Below are positions 34,059 through 56,822 of a stretch of 64,000 bases of DNA, piece by piece. Below the pieces are notes generated by a model. The model searched no databases. It was given only the letters and a program-made list of their open reading frames with translations, and had not been told where the DNA came from. Positions within the stretch are counted from its first letter, which is position 1. Each line of letters starts with the position of its first letter. Source of the DNA: Eledone cirrhosa (taxonomy: Eukaryota); NCBI GenBank assembly GCA_964016885.1, contig OZ024754.1, forward strand, positions 40,362,001-40,426,000. Reading direction: 5' to 3'. The translations under genes were made by a program, and so were the position numbers.

Positions 34059-34409
<351 letters not shown>

Positions 34410-34596
34410 TTATGGTTGAATTAAATTAAACCACAAAATCATTATGTTGGCGTGAGCTTGTATCATTTGTATATGAAAAATGTAGTTTTTCTTATATATG
34501 TATACATACATATATATCAATTACCTACTCTACTACCTCAAGTATTGAGTACTCTGGTGGGTTATGGTCTACCTGGTTTTTACCACACCCTATCTG

Positions 34597-34627
<31 letters not shown>

Positions 34628-34985
34628 CCAAAGACTACATAGACATCAGAAACCTATGTTATATTTTTATTGTATCCTTTTGTAGTTTTTTTCTCATACA
34701 AATAATTCTTTCTAACATTGACACAAAGCCAATAATTTGATAGAAAGAGAATGTCAATCATATTAACCTCAGTATGTAACTGGTACTTTCTATTTTATCA
34801 ATCCCAGATGACTGTAAAGCCTTTTGTCCAACACTACCCTTTTTTTATACAAACAATGGTTTCTGATTTAGGCCCAAAGCCAACAATTTTAAGAAGCAGA
34901 GAAAGTCGATTAAATCAACCATAGTACACTACTGGTACTTTATTTTCTTATACAAATGATGCCAGCTTTTAGCCCCCAAAAATCA

Positions 34986-35258
<273 letters not shown>

Positions 35259-35801
35259 CTACAAATAAAATTAAGAAAAAAAAAAAAAGAAATTAAAATA
35301 ATGATAAAAATCAAATAGATACAATATATAAAATGTTACATTTAATTTTAGGGAAGGTATGTAGCCTAGTGGTTAGAATACCAAGGTGAAGATTGTAAAG
35401 TCATGAGGTTGATGGCATGTGACCTTGAGCCAGACAATTCATTTCATGTTGCTCCAATTCACTCAGCTGAACAAAATAGCTGGTTACTACAGACAGTTGT
35501 CCTACAGGAGGGGAGTTATATATTGCTGGCCACATGAAACCAGGATAAACTCAAGCCTGATGGGCAACATCTAGGCTTAAGACTTTAATTTCATTTTATT
35601 TCCATAATCTTGTCCTGGAATCCTGGAATGATTACACAAGAGACAATCTCATAACTGTCTTGAAGTGTAAATTTAGAGAAAAGTAATTAGTCTAGAAAGT
35701 TATTTTTAATGACTTAGTCACATGCTGTTAGCTGTCTGGTCTAGAGCTGACAGCATGTAAGTCATAAAAAATAAATCAAAAGGTTTAAGAAACGTGGTTA
35801 C

Positions 35802-35859
35802 CTTATGAGGGCAGGGCACTGTACGGGGAACATCATCAGTAGGCTTTCTTGGTTTTATT
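35802..35859 (-). CDS. YY1: YY1 exon 3
   Basis: (R)IKPRKPTDDVPRTVPCPHK; acceptor ttacttttag, donor gtaacc; 58 nt restores phase 0. Confidence 0.93.
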
Positions 35860-37101: not shown

Positions 37102-39776
37102 TAAAGTGTTAAAGTCTTTTTTCTTTATATTAAAATTAGGGGATATATATATATAAAATCTGGAAAAGGAAAACCAAAGTGATTAAAAGGAAAATAAGAC
37201 AAAGAAACTTTGTTTTTTTTCAAAAGCTAACTATTGGTTACTACTCGGCACATTCATCAGCAATACTAAATAAACATCTTAGAAAACACCTGTAGGAAAG
37301 GAAAGAAATCAACTATTATGATTGTTTTTACTTATGTAGTTAATGTTTTGTTCATGAGGATACACTTTATTTACACACACATACAAGAGCAAAACACTAG
37401 AGAACGAAACAGAAATAATATTTTCTGTTTAAACAAAACACTCATCTACTAAATATATGAAAAAGCAACCATAGCAATTGTTAGTGCATTCATAAATTTT
37501 AAACATTGTGCGAGCGAGGAAAGAAAATCACTATGGAGAAATATTTTACTATTTGTTAAAGTTGTGACTTAGATATTAAGTCTTTTTTATATTATAGTAA
37601 TCCACATAAATGGCAGAATTATGTTTAAATTGGCAGAGAGGTCTGGGGAATGGGTAAAATTAGCAACCACATAAATACTTATATTTATTTATACCACCCA
37701 CTTCCTTTGTAATTGGAACAGCTTTTTTAAGGGAGGAAGCAGACCACAATATAAATTGCTAACCTGATATTAAATTTACAATGATTCCTAGTTTCTCATG
37801 CCATAAATGGAGAGAATACCAAAGACATGCAACTCAAAAACTAAAATCAAAGACTTAGCACCAATAACAAAAAAACAGGTGATTTAAGATTTATAACTAT
37901 TTTAATATATATAATAAGCAAACCAAATAATAGTCTTTCGACTGCAAGAGCCAAAATAAGAACAAAAATATATTTTAAAAAACACATAAAAAATAATAGG
38001 CTCAAATATATAAGACAAGATTACATAAAAAGTGGACAAAAAGGAACCAGAAGCGTTCAACCTGTGCTTACCCAGAAAGGCGCGAATGGTAAAGCCCATC
38101 CAGGTCAACGGTCAGGTCACGTTTTTCTTTCCTCGCACGTACTGTAGAGGTGTTACTAGATTAAGTAAAAGAGAAGGTCTTTATGAAGCAGCCTCAGAGA
38201 CAGAAAGGAGAAAGAGAAAACAGAGAAAGAGAGAGGATGTGTGTGTGTATGCATGTGTTGAGAAAGAGGTGTTAGAGGACACCACTTCAGGTTACATCAA
38301 ATAAGGTGTCTTTAAAAATTGTAAATGGTGATGGCCATAGGTTTTGAGGAGCAGAATATATATTCCCTAGTGCTGCCTAAGAACAGCAGAGGTTATTATC
38401 AAACAAAGAATATTTAAATATACTGTTATAATCATACCTACATTTATAGTTATTGGCATTGTCATTTGAACAAAAAATAGGCTATCCTTAAAAAGGTCCT
38501 ACAGCATTGTTCAAAAATTACGCTATCCTTAAAAGGAGCCCTAAAGTCTGCAAAAAATCTAATCTCTAAAAACGATGACGTATAAAATAAATAAAAACCC
38601 AATGAACCATTACGATCCAAACTATATGGGTAAATTACTAAAGGCAATAATAACAACAAAGAAATTAGGATGTAAAATTATCATTATTATTGATAATAAA
38701 GGATATATATATAAACGTTAAAATAAAATACTTAAAACAAATTAAAATCCCCACATCTAATTAAAAACAAGAGCCTATATTCATCTTTAAAGAGTCCTCA
38801 ACAATATAAAATTGAAGAAGCTAAATTTTAAACATTATTCAACAATCTAAAAAAAAAAAAAAGGAACTTTTCTTACAATATATAATTTTTTCAAACTATT
38901 TTTTTTCTCTACATAGCACCAGTTAGATTTTAAATGCAATGTAAATTAAGTTAGCACCATCATCACATAAGTGATGACATACACTACTGAACAGTGGTCA
39001 AGGAATTATTATTATTAAAGTAAGCTATGATTAAAAAACATCTTTATTGCCTTCAAATTAAAATGAGTTCATGCTAGTACTGAAGACAGTAGTAATACAC
39101 CAGTAAAAGAATTTAATGTGATCTGCTTCCAATAGAAACAGCCAAATTTCTATTGTCTTTAATTACTTGTAGAAAATTAATAATTTCAGATAGAATAGAC
39201 AAGAATAAATAATTGGAAATTTTATATGAAAAGATCAAGATGAAAAGTCAACATTTTTAGGAAGATATCCACGCAAGCAATGCTTGGTGCAGCATGCAAA
39301 AAAGCATGCTAACTGTAATTTCTGCCATTATTCTAACCAACGTCATTTTCCATCATTTTAATGTGTGTGTGTGTGTGTGTTTGTGCATGTGCTTATATAT
39401 ATATATGCGCATGTGTGTGTGTATTGTGTTGTAAATGGATGTTTTCTGAAATATAAAAAGATTTGAGAAATGATTTGTGCAGAAGTGAAAAAATAAAGAA
39501 GCCATTAGTTTGCCATAGAGTGCTCCCACCAAGAAAAGACATTCACATTTTCAGTTCTTCAATAGAAGAGTTTGTAAAATATCATTTTTGAGCCAGCAAT
39601 TTCATTTTCAAAATTATACAAACTCAAATATTTTTACACAATATAACACATCCTTGGTACTTTAACTGATCGTCTGATGTGTAAGCTCAAGATGAGTATC
39701 TGTTTACTTTATAAGACAAGTATAAATTATTAAAGTTTTTTCAAAGCTCGAGTTGAGGCACGAGTGTATTACAATA

Positions 39777-40342: not shown

Positions 40343-40525
<183 letters not shown>

Positions 40526-42679
40526 TCAAACTTTATAATGTCCGAAGAAAAAAATGCTTATGATACCAACCCACCTGAAACTGGCTTCGGTCCTACAATA
40601 CAAAGCTGTTTGTTTTATCTAAAAACTTTCCATCATAATTTTATGAAAGAAATCATGCTCCGAATAAATAAACTAAATTCTTATTTTTAAAAAGATTGTG
40701 AAAATCAGCCAAGTTTTAAAAATGTGACATGGTGGTACCCCAGCATGGTCTCAGTCAGATAGCTGGAACAGGTAAAAGACTTGAGCTGATACCACACCAG
40801 CTCAGTTAAGTGGACTGGTCAAACTACTAGAGAAGAAAATGACAGGAAGGGGTGACCTCCGATAGTTTAGGTGAAGGAGGATGTAGTGATGATGAGAATA
40901 TCTAAGCAGTGATAGTGGTGGAGGCATGGATGGTGTAGTCAATAGCATGGAGGGAGAGCACTGATCAGGAAGGACATCCTACTGTAGAAACCATGTGACA
41001 ACTGGAACGTATGTGACGCATAGCCCCCAGTCTATCTGAGTTGACAGTAGCTCCAATTAAACACTGATTAAGTTAGATCTGTGTCAACCTGTCCAACCCA
41101 TGCTAACATGGAAGAACAGACATTAAATGGTGATGATGAACATGTCAAATACAAACGTAGAGTTCTAGTAGCAGTCAACTGTGTTGTTTATGTCTTTAAG
41201 AATGTCAAGAGTTAAAGAATTTGTTATGAATTTGATGCCGAAAATATCTAAACATTTTTCACTGAGAGTACAGTAATGTCACTGTACTGGGTAAAGTATC
41301 CTATATGTGTTTAAACTGTTTCAAGCGAAGGAACATTATTTTAGTTGATGCCAAATATTGGGGTCTGACAAGTTTTGATGTATTGTTTATAGAGAACAAT
41401 GGCATATTTTGGTAATCTTCCTCAAAATATGTTTTGCCACAGAATTCTCAGGAAGTATCAATACTTGTTTGCTTCCATCATCATTATTTTTACAGCCTTT
41501 TTTTATGCTTGCAAGGGTTAGACCAGGGTTTCCCAACCTGGGCGATATTGCCCTCTGGTGTAACTGAACAGTAAATGGTGGGTGATTGAAAATTTTGAAT
41601 ATTAATAAGATATTTCAACATATATTACACCCCCCCCCCCCCCAATTTTTTTTTTCCGTGTAATATATGTTGAAATACCTTCTTAAAAATTTACCAGAAC
41701 ATGTTGTTACTCTAAAATTAGATTGTTTGACACCTGTATGAGAAGTGTGATGTTTGATGGCAGCAAGACATGGGTGATGAGTTTGGAAGATGTTCAAAGG
41801 CTGGAGAGAAATGAATCATATTTTATTGGATGTGTAATGTGTAGTGTGTCTGAACAATGAAGTATGGGTAAGCTGAGGGGAAACACAGGACGTGAACAAC
41901 AATGGGTAGATACAGATGACAGAAGGAAAACCATTGGTGAATAAAAGAAATATAAAATGACCCCTTGGAACAACAATGGAGATGAAAACACTTGTTAAAG
42001 GTAAACAGGTTTTGTGGTAACATGTCAATTTGTTAATCTGAAAATCAGCCCGACAGACGAATGTAAAAAGTCAATCAATAGACTTGGAATCAGTCCTAAG
42101 AGAAGAAAATAGAGAGAGATAGGTTTATTAATAATTAAAGACCATTTAGCAAAAAACTTACTGTTTAATGTCAAGTTTCCAGAGCAACAATAATAATTGT
42201 TTTTACTTTAGGCACAAGGCCAACAGTTTGAAAGTGAGGGGAAAGTCAATTAAATCAACCAGTGTGCTACTGGTACTTCATTTTATCGAAGTGTAATGTA
42301 GCAGATACCAATCAAATTGTTTGAGGCAAGATCTATACACATACACACACATATATACATACATACATATATATACACACACACACATACATCATCATCA
42401 TTTTATGTCTGCTTTTCCCTGCTTACAAGGGTGGGACGGGAACTGATTCTGGCTTGATTTCTACAGCTGGATACCCTTCCTAACACCAACCTCATTTACA
42501 GTGTGGGCTAGGTGCTTTTTTGCCGTGGCACCTCCACGACCACTTTGCAGTGGAATGATAGGGACCCCAGTCCCTATCATCTCATTTCTACAGCTGAGTA
42601 AACTGGAGCAATGTGAAATAAAGTGTCTTGCTCAAGGAAACAACACATCACCCGGTCTTTCGAGTGTGTATATATATAT

Positions 42680-42710
<31 letters not shown>

Positions 42711-42719
42711 CATATCAGT

Positions 42720-43300
42720 CATATGGACGCCAACCTGTACGTTAAATTCCTTGTTATAGTCATTGTTAACTCTAACTTGGCTGACTGCTCCCCTATACAT
42801 GGCTTGTGCAGCCTTCACAAGCCATTCATCTACTCCTAAAAGCCCACCAGATTATGGCACGGGGAACTCAGTTGAAGGCTTTTTCTAGATAGACAAATGC
42901 CAGGTAGAGCGGCTTACTTTTAGCTAGGTACTTTTCCTGTAACTGCCTCACAAGGAAGAGAGTCTCTGCGGTGCTTAGCCTGGCACACACCCGAGCTGCA
43001 TCTCATCTAGATTTACCTGGTCCCTAATGAGCTATGCTATAACTCTTTCTGTTACTTTCATGACCTGGTCCATTAAGCTTTATACCTCTATAGTTTCCTC
43101 TTTCCTCTATCTAGTGCATCTCCTTTACCCATATAGCAGTGGACAATGATGCTGCTGCGCCAATCATTTGGTATGACGCCTTCTAGTAGTACTTGGTTAA
43201 CAATACGTGTTATATTGTGTCCTACCGACCCAGATGCTTAGCATCTAGTCAACTATTCCCGATGGACCGGCTGCTTTCCTAGTCTTCATATCCTTAATTG
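42720..43300 (-). mobile_element. degenerate RTE-like LINE RT N-terminal fragment
   Basis: The minus strand reads VRQLQEKYLAKSKPLYLAFVYLEKAFN*VPRAIIWWAF (RT motif-A region) with stops. Confidence 0.7.
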
Positions 43301-43883
43301 CCTTTAAGTATATATAACTATATATATATATATTATATACACACCATTGTCTATATTTATTCCGTCTACCGTTTAGGAAATCTCGCAATGATCTTCGGAG
43401 TACACGGTTTCCTCATTAACCGTTTATTAACAACTCCTTTTATTAAACTGGTTGTTTTAAAATGTTTATATTCATTTTTGAAACCGGCTAAGAAAATATT
43501 TATTTTATAACCTTCCATAACAATTTTATGTAAGAACCTTTGTTAAGTTACGATCCAAACGTCAGCTTAATAACGGGAATGTTCGCTATATTACTAAATC
43601 CTTCCAAAAGGGACCTGCCGTATATTTTTTAAAATTATTTTTTTCGGTCATTAACCATTAATATGCTGCGGTTTAAAGATCAGGTGTGATTTGATGGCAA
43701 TATAGCTGCTATTTCTAGCAAGTGGTGTGGCCACATAAGCTCCCATATAGTCGTTGTAATATTATATTTATTGTATACGCGGACAGGCAGAATTATATCA
43801 GATTCTATTGTGTAATAAAATGTAATATTCAGCCTTAAATTAAATGCTCTACCGACTATAACAAGCTATAACAGAATCTATGT

Positions 43884-43927
<44 letters not shown>

Positions 43928-44820
43928 TCTAACAATCGAACGTTTCCTATGAGTAAATTCTTAATGACATTTTCTTAGGTTTACGGAAGTAAATAGGGAG
44001 GAAGATAGTTTATTTGTTAGATTATCGACAACAACTGAGGATCAAACAAGGTATTTTTTTTCTAGAAAAGGAATGGATGAAAAAAACGGAAGCAAAATAA
44101 ACATTTTAAACGAATTCCATTCCAATTTAGAAGTGTAGAATTAAATCACTGACACAAGAAATCGACAAAGTAGAAATTACGCCATAAGAAATAGTTGTCA
44201 AATGATGAGTTAAATGAATATTAGAGAGCAATATATCCGTAGAATTATGAAATTAATTATTTTTACACTTGATAATCTAAAAAATATTATCTTTTCTACT
44301 TGAAAAAACAAGATATAATGTAAGAATTAAAAACCAACAATAGTTGGTAGTGAAACTACATTCGTCACGTATTTCATTACACATAAAAGACCAGAAAATT
44401 TTTTTTTTTAAAGCAAACATTTAAGTTTATTATTTTAAAAAATCACTCATAAATGTATACAGATAATGTTGATATATTGATAGGATTTGTCTAAATTTTA
44501 TTTAGATAACGACTCAGGCTTACCTAAATGAAACAAAAAATCGTTAAATACACATTATCCACACAGTAGCGCGCACTTGCTGGCAGCCATGAAACACACA
44601 CATACACATATATAGAAATACAAACGCATAGACAATAGTGAGGTGACTCCACTACATATCCTGGAAATTTGACATATTTAAAGCCCAATTACAAAAATAA
44701 ACTTTACCAAACTATTCTATAGCTTGTTATAAAAAATATTTACTGAAATTTATTACGGTAATAAAGTTCCCAGTGGAATAATTTCGTATGAATTTCAAGG
44801 ACGACCAAGTTACTGTTCAC

Positions 44821-44903
44821 AAAAATGGCCGCCATCCGCCATAGTATATTTTCCGCCATATTCTCAGAATATGGCGGCGCCCATGAAAATCATGATGGCC
44901 GAC
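44821..44903. promoter_or_regulatory. cluster of 6-7 YY1-type sites (GCCAT/ATGGC) in YY1 intron 1
   Basis: aaaaATGGCcGCCATccGCCATagt...ccGCCATattctcagaatATGGCggcgcCCATg...tgATGGCcg in an otherwise AT-rich intron. Confidence 0.8.
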
Positions 44904-45206
44904 TTCAAAATCAAAACAAACATGTGTATAGGTAACAATATTCCTCAAAGATGACTTAAAATAGTGTCCACTCTTCTTTAAAATGGATATAGAACGGCTA
45001 CATAAAATGCCCCAGTTTGTGGCTTACGTCACATAGATGCTATGACCTTTTCAACATAGATTTATTGACGTTCTTTCTCGAGTAGCAGCTTATCCGTCTA
45101 GTGTTTGACGTAAATACTCGATGTGGGCAAGAAATGATACTAAACTAATAAAAATAATATGTATATACGGATTAATACAAAATATATATTGAAAGTAGAT
45201 AAATCA

Positions 45207-46097
<891 letters not shown>

Positions 46098-46179
46098 ATG
46101 GGTGCTAAAGTTTCTAGGAAAGATTTTGAATGGTCTTACACTCAGGAACCACATGCTTCGCGAAGGAAAGCAATAATGG
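46098..46179 (+). CDS. DEGS1: sphingolipid delta(4)-desaturase, coding exon 1
   Basis: [27 protein letters not shown]+G; donor gtaagg; 82 nt, too short for the ORF track. N-terminal MG myristoylation motif. Probably co-orthologous to DEGS1/DEGS2. Confidence 0.95.
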
Positions 46180-54943: not shown

Positions 54944-56166
54944 TCATCATCATCATCATCATCACCGTTTTACGTCCGTTCTTCCACGCTAGCATGGGTT
55001 AGACGGGTTGTCCTGTTGTGGGCAGTGTCTGGTCGGCTGACCATGCCTTGCTCATACAGGAACTGATTTGGCTTGATTTCTACAGCTGGATGCCCTTTCT
55101 AACACCAACCTCATTTACATTGAGTGCTGGGTGCTTTTTTACTGTGGTGCCTACACGTCCACTTTACAGTATGGGCTGGGTGCTTTTTGCCGTGGCACCT
55201 CCACGACCACCTTGCAGTAGGAGGGTGTGGGGGCATATTATCTATATGCTTCAGCTTGTACCCATGGGAGGTCAGGTACTCTGTATTACTGCGTGACGCC
55301 AGAGGTCACGGTCGTGTGTCATTGCTTTGAGAGGTGTAATTGGGTAAGGTCGGCTTTTATCACCTCATCCCAGGTCATCTTGGGTCTCCCCACTCCGCGG
55401 TTTCCATCGACTTCTAGTGCTCTGCACCTTTTTATGCAGCTGTCATCCTTCATACGCATCACATGTCCATACCAACACATCCGCCTCCCCTGCACACAGC
55501 ATTTGATTCCTCTTATGTTCAGTCTCTCTCTCATTTATGCTTTGTCGTTCACGTATATTACTATTACACATCCATCGGAGCATGCAGGCTTCGTTTCTCT
55601 CTAATCTACATAAGTCTTCCACCTTCAGCGCCCAGGTCTCACTACCATGCAACATTGCTGTTCAGATACACACATCATACAGTCTGCCTTTCATTTTGAG
55701 GAAGAAGCCTTTTGCAGTTAGCAGTGGTAGCAGTTCCCTGAACTTCTTCCATCCCGTTCTTACCCTAGTTATTGTACTTTCTGAACACCCACCCCCGCTG
55801 CTAATTCGGTCACCTAGGTAGCAGAAGCTGTCTACTGTCTCTACAGAGCCCTCCCAGAGATTGGTGGTACTTGTTTCCTGTGGCTGTTTGCTGCTTGCTG
55901 TCCCAGTACAACTGCTGCATGTGAAGCCTTCATTCTTAATTAAGCTTCCTGAGATCCCGCTACATCTCTTGTGTACCCATTGTTTGCATTTGGGGCAGAG
56001 AATGGAGTTCCTACCTACACCTTTCCTACATACTGAGCAAGGCCATTTCCCTGAGGGGATCTGGGTTCTGTTTTCTCGTCTACTTACAAGGACCTTAGTC
56101 TTTGTCATGTTGACTTTGAGACCCTTTCTTTCTAGTCCCTGCTTCCAAGTTTGGAATTTCTTCTCT
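54944..56166 (-). mobile_element. 5'-truncated RTE-like LINE: RT C-terminus with embedded PHD-type finger, 3'UTR and (GAT)n tail
   Basis: ORFs 55662..56108, 55443..55655 and 55319..55534 (frameshifted): KTKVL, FCYLGD, LHGSETW, WYGHVMR, GRPKMTW. Tail (cat)n at 54944-54965. 3'UTR fragments recur at ~13250, 33800, 41090, 42390, 48895, 53980, 56930-57145 and 58970. Confidence 0.88.
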
Positions 56167-56822
56167 GATATATATATAATCCTTATCGAGCCCTCTTCAG
56201 ATTTTAGTCTTCATGTTTATTATTACTCTATATATAAATACACTATAGTATAAGTTTGGTAGAAATATCCGAGGGTGAGAGCACTCAGTCCATAGGATGG
56301 GTTGAGTATAATTAGTTACAACAGTGGTATGTTCAATTAAGTTTTGTTGGGTTACACACCCCAACTCATTCAGACTTATATACATTTTTTTTTAAAATTT
56401 TATGTAACAGCCTGAATCACACACACACACACTCTCTCTCTCTCTCTCTCTCAACTATGCCATTTTAGGGAAACCTGTGGTCAGAATCATTAGTTTTTTT
56501 GTACAAAATGCCTTGTAGTATTTGTTCTCCCGCCCTCTCTCCCTCTCTCTGTAATTAGAATATTAGGTTGCCTATATTCCCCATTGGCATGACTGTTTAA
56601 GCTGACAGACAAGATTGTCAAAGTATAAAGTATAACAGCTGCCTGCTGTAGTAGTTAGGATTATGTTAGATATCAGCAGATATTCTGCAATGTAATTGTT
56701 GCTTTTAATGTAGTTAGTCTCCATTAAAACAACTATATAAAACTTTTCTTCATCTGTCTCACATATAAACCTTATGAGCTGTCAAAAAATGATTTTATTC
56801 TTACAAAAAATTACTGTTCAGT

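Follow-up and report, generated by a model that had tools for sequence, protein, structure and literature searches.

Does a tight group of YY1-binding motifs inside the first intron of an octopus YY1 gene represent the same regulatory element that is known from vertebrates, or did it come about in some other way? The vertebrate counterpart was described by Kim, Yu and Kim in 2009 (PMC2743690; hereafter Kim 2009) as a 100-bp cluster at the beginning of the first YY1 intron; the sites number five in vertebrates, four in amphioxus, and three in the sea squirt, and the alignment includes a sea urchin sequence. Because the cluster is missing in Drosophila pho, its origin was dated there to after the split from insects, the region being taken to have formed once vertebrates had diverged from invertebrates. 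An initial annotation of the window—by which we mean the whole 64-kb stretch of Eledone cirrhosa DNA analyzed here—proposed a palindromic cluster of YY1 sites as a candidate autoregulatory module in an invertebrate. Invertebrate occurrence as such was already known, since Kim 2009 report the sea urchin, amphioxus, and sea squirt; the new part is the occurrence in a protostome.

The same annotation took the host gene to be YY1, an identification borne out by matches to exon 1, to the zinc fingers, and across the exon map (Table 1). Exon 1 is 100% identical to YY1 of Octopus vulgaris, O. sinensis, and O. bimaculoides, its donor lies at 45211 on the minus strand, the host intron is the first coding intron, and the remaining exons could be traced down to ~21700. 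Counted by eye, 112 of 115 zinc-finger residues are identical to those of human YY1 in PDB 1UBD, the three differences all falling early in finger 1; with fingers so nearly identical, the same DNA specificity is expected. A 24-codon YY1 exon (38071-38142, minus strand), situated after exon 2 and before the zinc-finger exons, is present in the 403-aa Octopus protein, and the shorter isoforms listed suggest that it may be alternative. The YY1 start codon falls inside a perfect GCCATnTT on the opposite strand (45658-45665, plus), a pattern that also fits seven of the nine other loci checked, at the likely start. Overlap of YY1 motifs with start-codon contexts is known, and the match may be incidental or may be an extra self-site.

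YY1 stands head-to-head with a sphingolipid desaturase gene (DEGS), 435 nt away (45662-46098), and the same pairing recurs in two of the loci sampled from other animals (L005 and L041, below). Human DEGS2 adjoins YY1 as well, which would make YY1 and the desaturase an old gene pair. Broken reading frames in the desaturase intron (55300-56210, minus strand) look to us like a LINE-type retrotransposon.

Table 1. Features of the YY1 locus in the octopus window; site orientations are given in the sense of the gene.
Feature	Position	Strand	Evidence and remarks
Conserved non-coding element, YY1 intron 1	44821..44921	-	Intron positions 291-391; blastn and nhmmer (44820-44922)
T-rich box TTTGTTTT, upstream of site 1, no YY1 motif	44913..44920	-	In 8/12 aligned elements, including insects and teleost
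YY1 site 1, forward, core only	44895..44899	-	Core scan and alignment
GGGCGC box, abuts site 2	44877..44882	-	GGGCGC[AC]GCCAT in 9/12 elements
YY1 site 2, forward, perfect GCCATnTT, best conserved	44868..44875	-	Perfect in 11/12 elements
YY1 site 3, reverse, perfect GCCATnTT	44855..44862	+	Pairs with site 2 as a 12-bp palindrome, seen only in octopus
YY1 site 4, reverse, weaker GCCATAnT form	44838..44845	+	Motif scoring
Sixth core, poor flanks	44831..44835	+	Full core at that column in octopus only; alignment by eye
YY1 site 5, forward, perfect GCCATnTT; reverse in vertebrates	44822..44829	-	Alignment and motif scoring
YY1 coding exon 1	45212..45662	-	Ends after conserved segment; 100% identity to Octopus YY1 proteins
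YY1 intron 1	40501..45211	-	~4.7 kb; exon map; acceptor placed by eye
YY1 zinc-finger exons	34131..35858 (35858-35802, 35258 to ~35100, 34304-34131)	-	Exon map
DEGS (sphingolipid delta-4 desaturase) exon 1	46098..46178	+	Pfam PF08557, E 8.5e-12; neighbor, outside the element

All six ATGGC/GCCAT cores of the cluster and an additional lone CCAT were found where the initial annotation had placed them: ATGGC at 44825, 44871, and 44895, GCCAT at 44831, 44838, and 44855, and CCAT at 44881, the last of which overlaps the GGGCGC box and is not conserved. The distance originally given, 310-390 nt past the donor, agrees with our measurement of 308-390 nt into intron 1 (cores 44825-44899). The reading of the cores as YY1 motifs holds up as well: three of the six have the perfect form GCCATnTT, one has the weaker form GCCATAnT, and two consist of the core only, while three of the 11 matches to GCCATNTT in the 64-kb window fall within the cluster. 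With six cores in 76 bp, this is the densest grouping of the window, which holds 84 cores in total and three in its next best cluster. Six cores were reached in none of 2000 dinucleotide shuffles of the intron, none of 20000 of the local 200 bp, and two of 20000 of the 83 bp itself. The accompanying description of a GC island was overstated—GC content is indeed 48% over the 83 bp, as against 35% for the intron, but just 39% over 200 bp.

Two inverted pairs with 1-nt spacers had also been described, and both are present in the octopus: one at 44825-44835, the other a palindrome whose 12-bp arms (44853-44864 and 44866-44877) show 100% complementarity across a 1-nt spacer. Just past the element, at 44745-44769, another inverted repeat has 12-bp arms of 92% complementarity around a 1-nt center, and several substitutions of other species fall near it in read data.

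YY1 loci from other animals were gathered with a search pattern based on the conserved terminal part of exon 1, which found 59 metagenome loci and had no match in viral and prokaryotic contigs. Before counting, 26 of the 59 were left out as spliced or without this intron, and 33 genomic loci were kept; taxa were assigned by similarity of exon 1 to named proteins, and the sample had no locus recognizable as cnidarian or sponge. Clusters of at least four cores per 100 bp (four or five cores) occurred in 16 of the 33 loci, representing 11 distinct sequences, between +205 and +490 of this intron, with no cluster of at least four cores elsewhere in the 253,751 bases examined. These carriers comprise two bivalves (L005 and L052; Mya, 89% and 97%), two lophotrochozoan-like loci (L024 and L035) and one weakly so (L041), termite loci (L040, L042, L046, and L048; Cryptotermes, 96-97%), ant loci (L012, L043, and L051; Cyphomyrmex, 99%), a further insect (L009; thrips, 86%), a locus nearest a louse (L007; 62%), L017, which is too short for taxon assignment, and teleost yy1b (L032; 100%). 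The teleost locus, with two forward and three reverse sites, the third imperfect, reproduces the description in Kim 2009 and thus serves as a positive control.

The cluster was absent in the other 17 loci, 15 of them with a short intron (less than ~470 nt). These 15 look to us like copepods, water fleas, and a flatworm. In the tunicate-like L034 and L049, a near-identical pair with a long intron, no cluster was found in 3 kb, in contrast to the three sites given for the sea squirt YY1 intron in Kim 2009 (PMC2743690). One short-intron locus from a lineage without the cluster, L013, has a single perfect YY1 site at +117, possibly a remnant of it. Three of the carriers have an extra strong reverse YY1 site ~200 nt past the cluster (L005 at +549, L052 at +547, and L017 at +581), followed by a CACGTG E-box in both bivalves; this extra site is not alignable to the octopus intron.

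Alignment of intron 1 across species, a check put forward in the initial annotation, recovered the element in bivalves, other lophotrochozoan-like loci, insects, and the teleost. The copies share a common layout, in which the T-rich box is followed by site 1 in forward orientation, the GGGCGC box touching a forward site 2, and sites 3 and 4 in reverse. Most protostome copies carry a forward site 5; the order of sites reads >><<<> in octopus, >><<> in bivalves, termite, and two other insects, and >><<< in the teleost, and site 1 is core-only in most protostome copies. Five sites are conserved, not six, with a 4-base part of the sixth core (44831) also seen in three of four insects when aligned by eye. 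Sites 2 and 3 are separated by a spacer of 7 to 20 nt across 12 sequences, perfectly self-complementary only in octopus. The inverted pairs thus stand as a description of the octopus sequence but not as conserved features, and, given that both the self-complementary spacer and the full sixth core are confined to octopus, the palindromes are best understood as the octopus version of an inverted arrangement that is itself conserved.

Several comparisons indicate that similarity is not limited to the YY1 cores but extends beyond them. When the octopus intron was compared with 11 other introns using blastn, the element was the sole non-microsatellite match among the 30 best, at 83% identity to L024, 79% to L005, 73% over 104 nt to the termite, and 75% over 56 nt to the fish. 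A profile built from four insects found octopus 44820-44922 in the same gene orientation (nhmmer, E 8e-12, 42 bits), against a best E of 4.4 on reversed sequences. The fish sequence alone matched the octopus element at E 0.009 in nhmmer (computed over 254 kb and not a genome-wide E-value), with no match on reversed sequence, and at E 7e-4 in blastn (one vertebrate, and likewise not genome-wide); a 17-mer at 44867-44883 is identical between octopus and teleost. Because the regions had been selected by their cores, the cores and three flanking bases were held fixed in a shuffle control and the remainder was shuffled 1000 times per comparison. The real score was reached by one of 1000 shuffles for insects against octopus, by none for insects against bivalve or for lophotrochozoans against termite, by two of 1000 for fish against octopus, by 24 of 1000 for the lophotrochozoan profile against fish, and by 275 of 1000 for the insect profile against fish. 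Since such core-preserving shuffles rarely reach the real scores, homology among the protostome copies is firm, and the link to vertebrates, which draws on one fish locus, is weaker but probable.

These results bear on whether the element is ancestral, convergent, or accidental. Ancestry and convergence had been left side by side in the initial annotation, and the alignment, profile, shuffle, and blastn evidence supports ancestry much better. A separate gain of intron-1 YY1 clusters in protostomes and deuterostomes would accommodate the differing orientation of site 5, the many lineages without the element, and the insect profile, which scores the fish element no better than core-preserving shuffles; yet outside the core motif the T-rich and GGGCGC boxes follow in one order whether in octopus, insects, or fish, the 17-mer is common to octopus and fish, and the element occupies the same intron at a similar distance from the donor. 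We therefore regard such convergence as quite unlikely and, judging from the alignments, convergence among protostomes themselves as very unlikely. Nor can much be said for a chance cluster or a fragment of a multicopy repeat, a reading that is largely refuted and that we find scarcely credible: the shuffle tests and the orthologous position in other phyla speak against it, and in all four sequencing runs of other species the cluster is spanned by a single contig (about 89-92% identity) at flat depth, without excess, which argues against a repeat. The inverted sites could alternatively pair as an RNA hairpin in the pre-mRNA, as the perfectly complementary octopus arms invite and as 89% of cells paired in the site 2/3 helix might suggest, but RNAalifold gives a 5-bp core stem alone with no compensatory pair, and the pair at the free position of the motif is broken in seven of 12 rows (the fish row being misaligned there). 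Moreover, 126 of 500 shuffles pair equally well, folding energies lie within those of core-preserving shuffles (z from -1.44 to +0.50 for 12 sequences), and no relevant Rfam match covers the element. We rejected the hairpin, which is most improbable, for this lack of covariation, shuffle-level pairing and energy, and lack of an Rfam match. A cryptic exon was rejected as well: the alignment has no shared AG after the T-rich box, and the spacers vary in frame; their variable lengths argue against a coding alternative exon. No ORF of at least 60 aa with homology was found over the element.

Other alternatives concern function rather than origin. The initial annotation had suggested that the cluster may act as a Polycomb-response-like element for both divergent genes, silencing YY1 together with the desaturase. 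Pho/YY1 sites do occur in fly Polycomb response elements, and in L005 and L041 the desaturase again lies head-to-head with YY1. However, a motif scan of 44501-45211 turned up only short GTGT and GAAAA words and nothing of the GAGAG, Zeste, or Sp1/KLF type; L024, L035, L009, and the termite and ant loci retain the element with no exon 1 of a desaturase found in the 3 kb upstream; and YY1 and the desaturase are presumably both broadly expressed kinds of gene. With companion motifs absent and the element persisting without an upstream desaturase, the suggestion is unsupported, and we give it next to no weight. Another possibility is an ancestral YY1-bound element that acts as an activator or internal promoter only, without negative feedback in protostomes. 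Kim 2009 (PMC2743690) report that YY1 binds the vertebrate cluster in vivo (ChIP, mouse brain), that mutation of any site abolishes zebrafish promoter activity, and that a promoter for unknown transcripts is not excluded; together with the flipped site 5 and the conservation of two non-YY1 boxes, the requirement of the sites for promoter activity would suit an activator. The same report also finds that excess YY1 lowers transcription from the zebrafish promoter through the sites in a dose-dependent manner, and a factor that binds its own gene amounts to feedback by construction, while variable spacers weigh against any version with a coding alternative exon. Activation alone is thus unlikely, in our judgment.

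The cluster, its position, its alignment across phyla, and the near-identity of the octopus zinc fingers to those of human YY1 are directly established. We consider it likely that the five YY1 motifs in the first intron of YY1, together with the two flanking boxes, are ancestral to bilaterians, and likely that they serve YY1 in regulating its own transcription. By analogy with vertebrates, octopus YY1 would regulate its own gene through the element: the protein would bind double-stranded DNA at the sites, strong and weak ones would fill progressively as YY1 rises, and low occupancy would activate the gene, whereas high occupancy would repress it. The element would then be required for activity at normal YY1 dose and repressive at high dose. 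Mixed site strengths—site 2 perfect in nearly all elements, site 1 mostly core-only—fit the occupancy-sensor idea proposed but not tested in Kim 2009 (PMC2743690). The two non-YY1 boxes suggest a partner factor, which would bind the T-rich and GGGCGC sequences. On balance, and with some reserve, we favor the view that the bilaterian ancestor already dosed YY1 via a fixed intron-1 sensor of five oriented sites and two partner boxes. Lineages without the element, namely Drosophila (pho, per Kim 2009) and the 17 loci here, likely lost it, mostly alongside intron shrinkage; the data point to ancestry plus loss rather than to an origin after the split from insects, which reverses the published view.

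In open-licence PMC and bioRxiv literature, we found no earlier report of the element in molluscs or insects. YY1 goes unmentioned in the main text of PMC13317027 and figures in the available text of PMC5010895 only as an enriched motif, and in that of PMC11794380 the sole citation for YY1 self-regulation is Kim 2009. YY1 is dosage-sensitive, haploinsufficiency leading to Gabriele-de Vries syndrome (PMC11794380), and conservation across phyla therefore marks the bases of the human element that are likely to matter, including the two boxes. Regulatory DNA that is recognizable between vertebrates and protostomes is rare, and the YY1 element adds one case. If the proposed ancestry is true, the loss in flies and compact-intron lineages is a natural experiment on when YY1/Pho dose control becomes dispensable, and insects with the element can be set against flies without it in a direct test of the dose-sensor model.

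How, then, does the octopus element compare with known systems? Drosophila Polycomb response elements likewise contain clustered Pho/YY1 GCCAT sites; unlike them, the octopus element does not combine these with GAGA, Zeste, and related motifs, is alignable across phyla, and has a vertebrate homologue needed for activation. A closer parallel is provided by the 25 pan-bilaterian segments of Frith and Ni 2023 (PMC10735318), which are also short, non-coding, alignable between vertebrates and protostomes, kept in position and orientation, and patchily lost. The octopus element shows the corresponding vertebrate-protostome similarity at homologous genes in the same position and orientation (for one vertebrate), and it is not protein, structural RNA, or pseudogene. 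YY1 is not among the 25; the main text does not name it, and the supplement has it a single time, as the label of a motif. Those segments mostly serve developmental genes, whereas the octopus element consists of the binding sites of its host gene's own product; if true, it is the only one of this kind among segments found in print.

The nearest relative is the cluster of Kim 2009 (PMC2743690). Both span ~100 bp near the start of the first (coding) intron of a true YY1 gene, both have five sites of mixed strength and encode the same DNA-binding domain in the host gene—in octopus six cores, three of them perfect GCCATnTT, where three to five sites in ~100 bp with several GCCATnTT characterize the known cluster—and in both the sites are conserved while the spacers vary. 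In the vertebrate cluster, the first two sites are forward and the others reverse, with an imperfect third; sites 1-2 forward and 3-4 reverse agree in octopus, but the last differs, being reverse in vertebrates (>><<<) and forward in most protostome copies (>><<>), such that the rule of opposed outer sites does not extend to octopus. The text available from that report says nothing of a T-rich or a GGGCGC box. We find the element in molluscs and insects, for which the report had inferred absence of the cluster from Drosophila alone. Judged by sequence, the octopus element corresponds to the vertebrate autoregulatory cluster, and the two probably derive from the same ancestral element.
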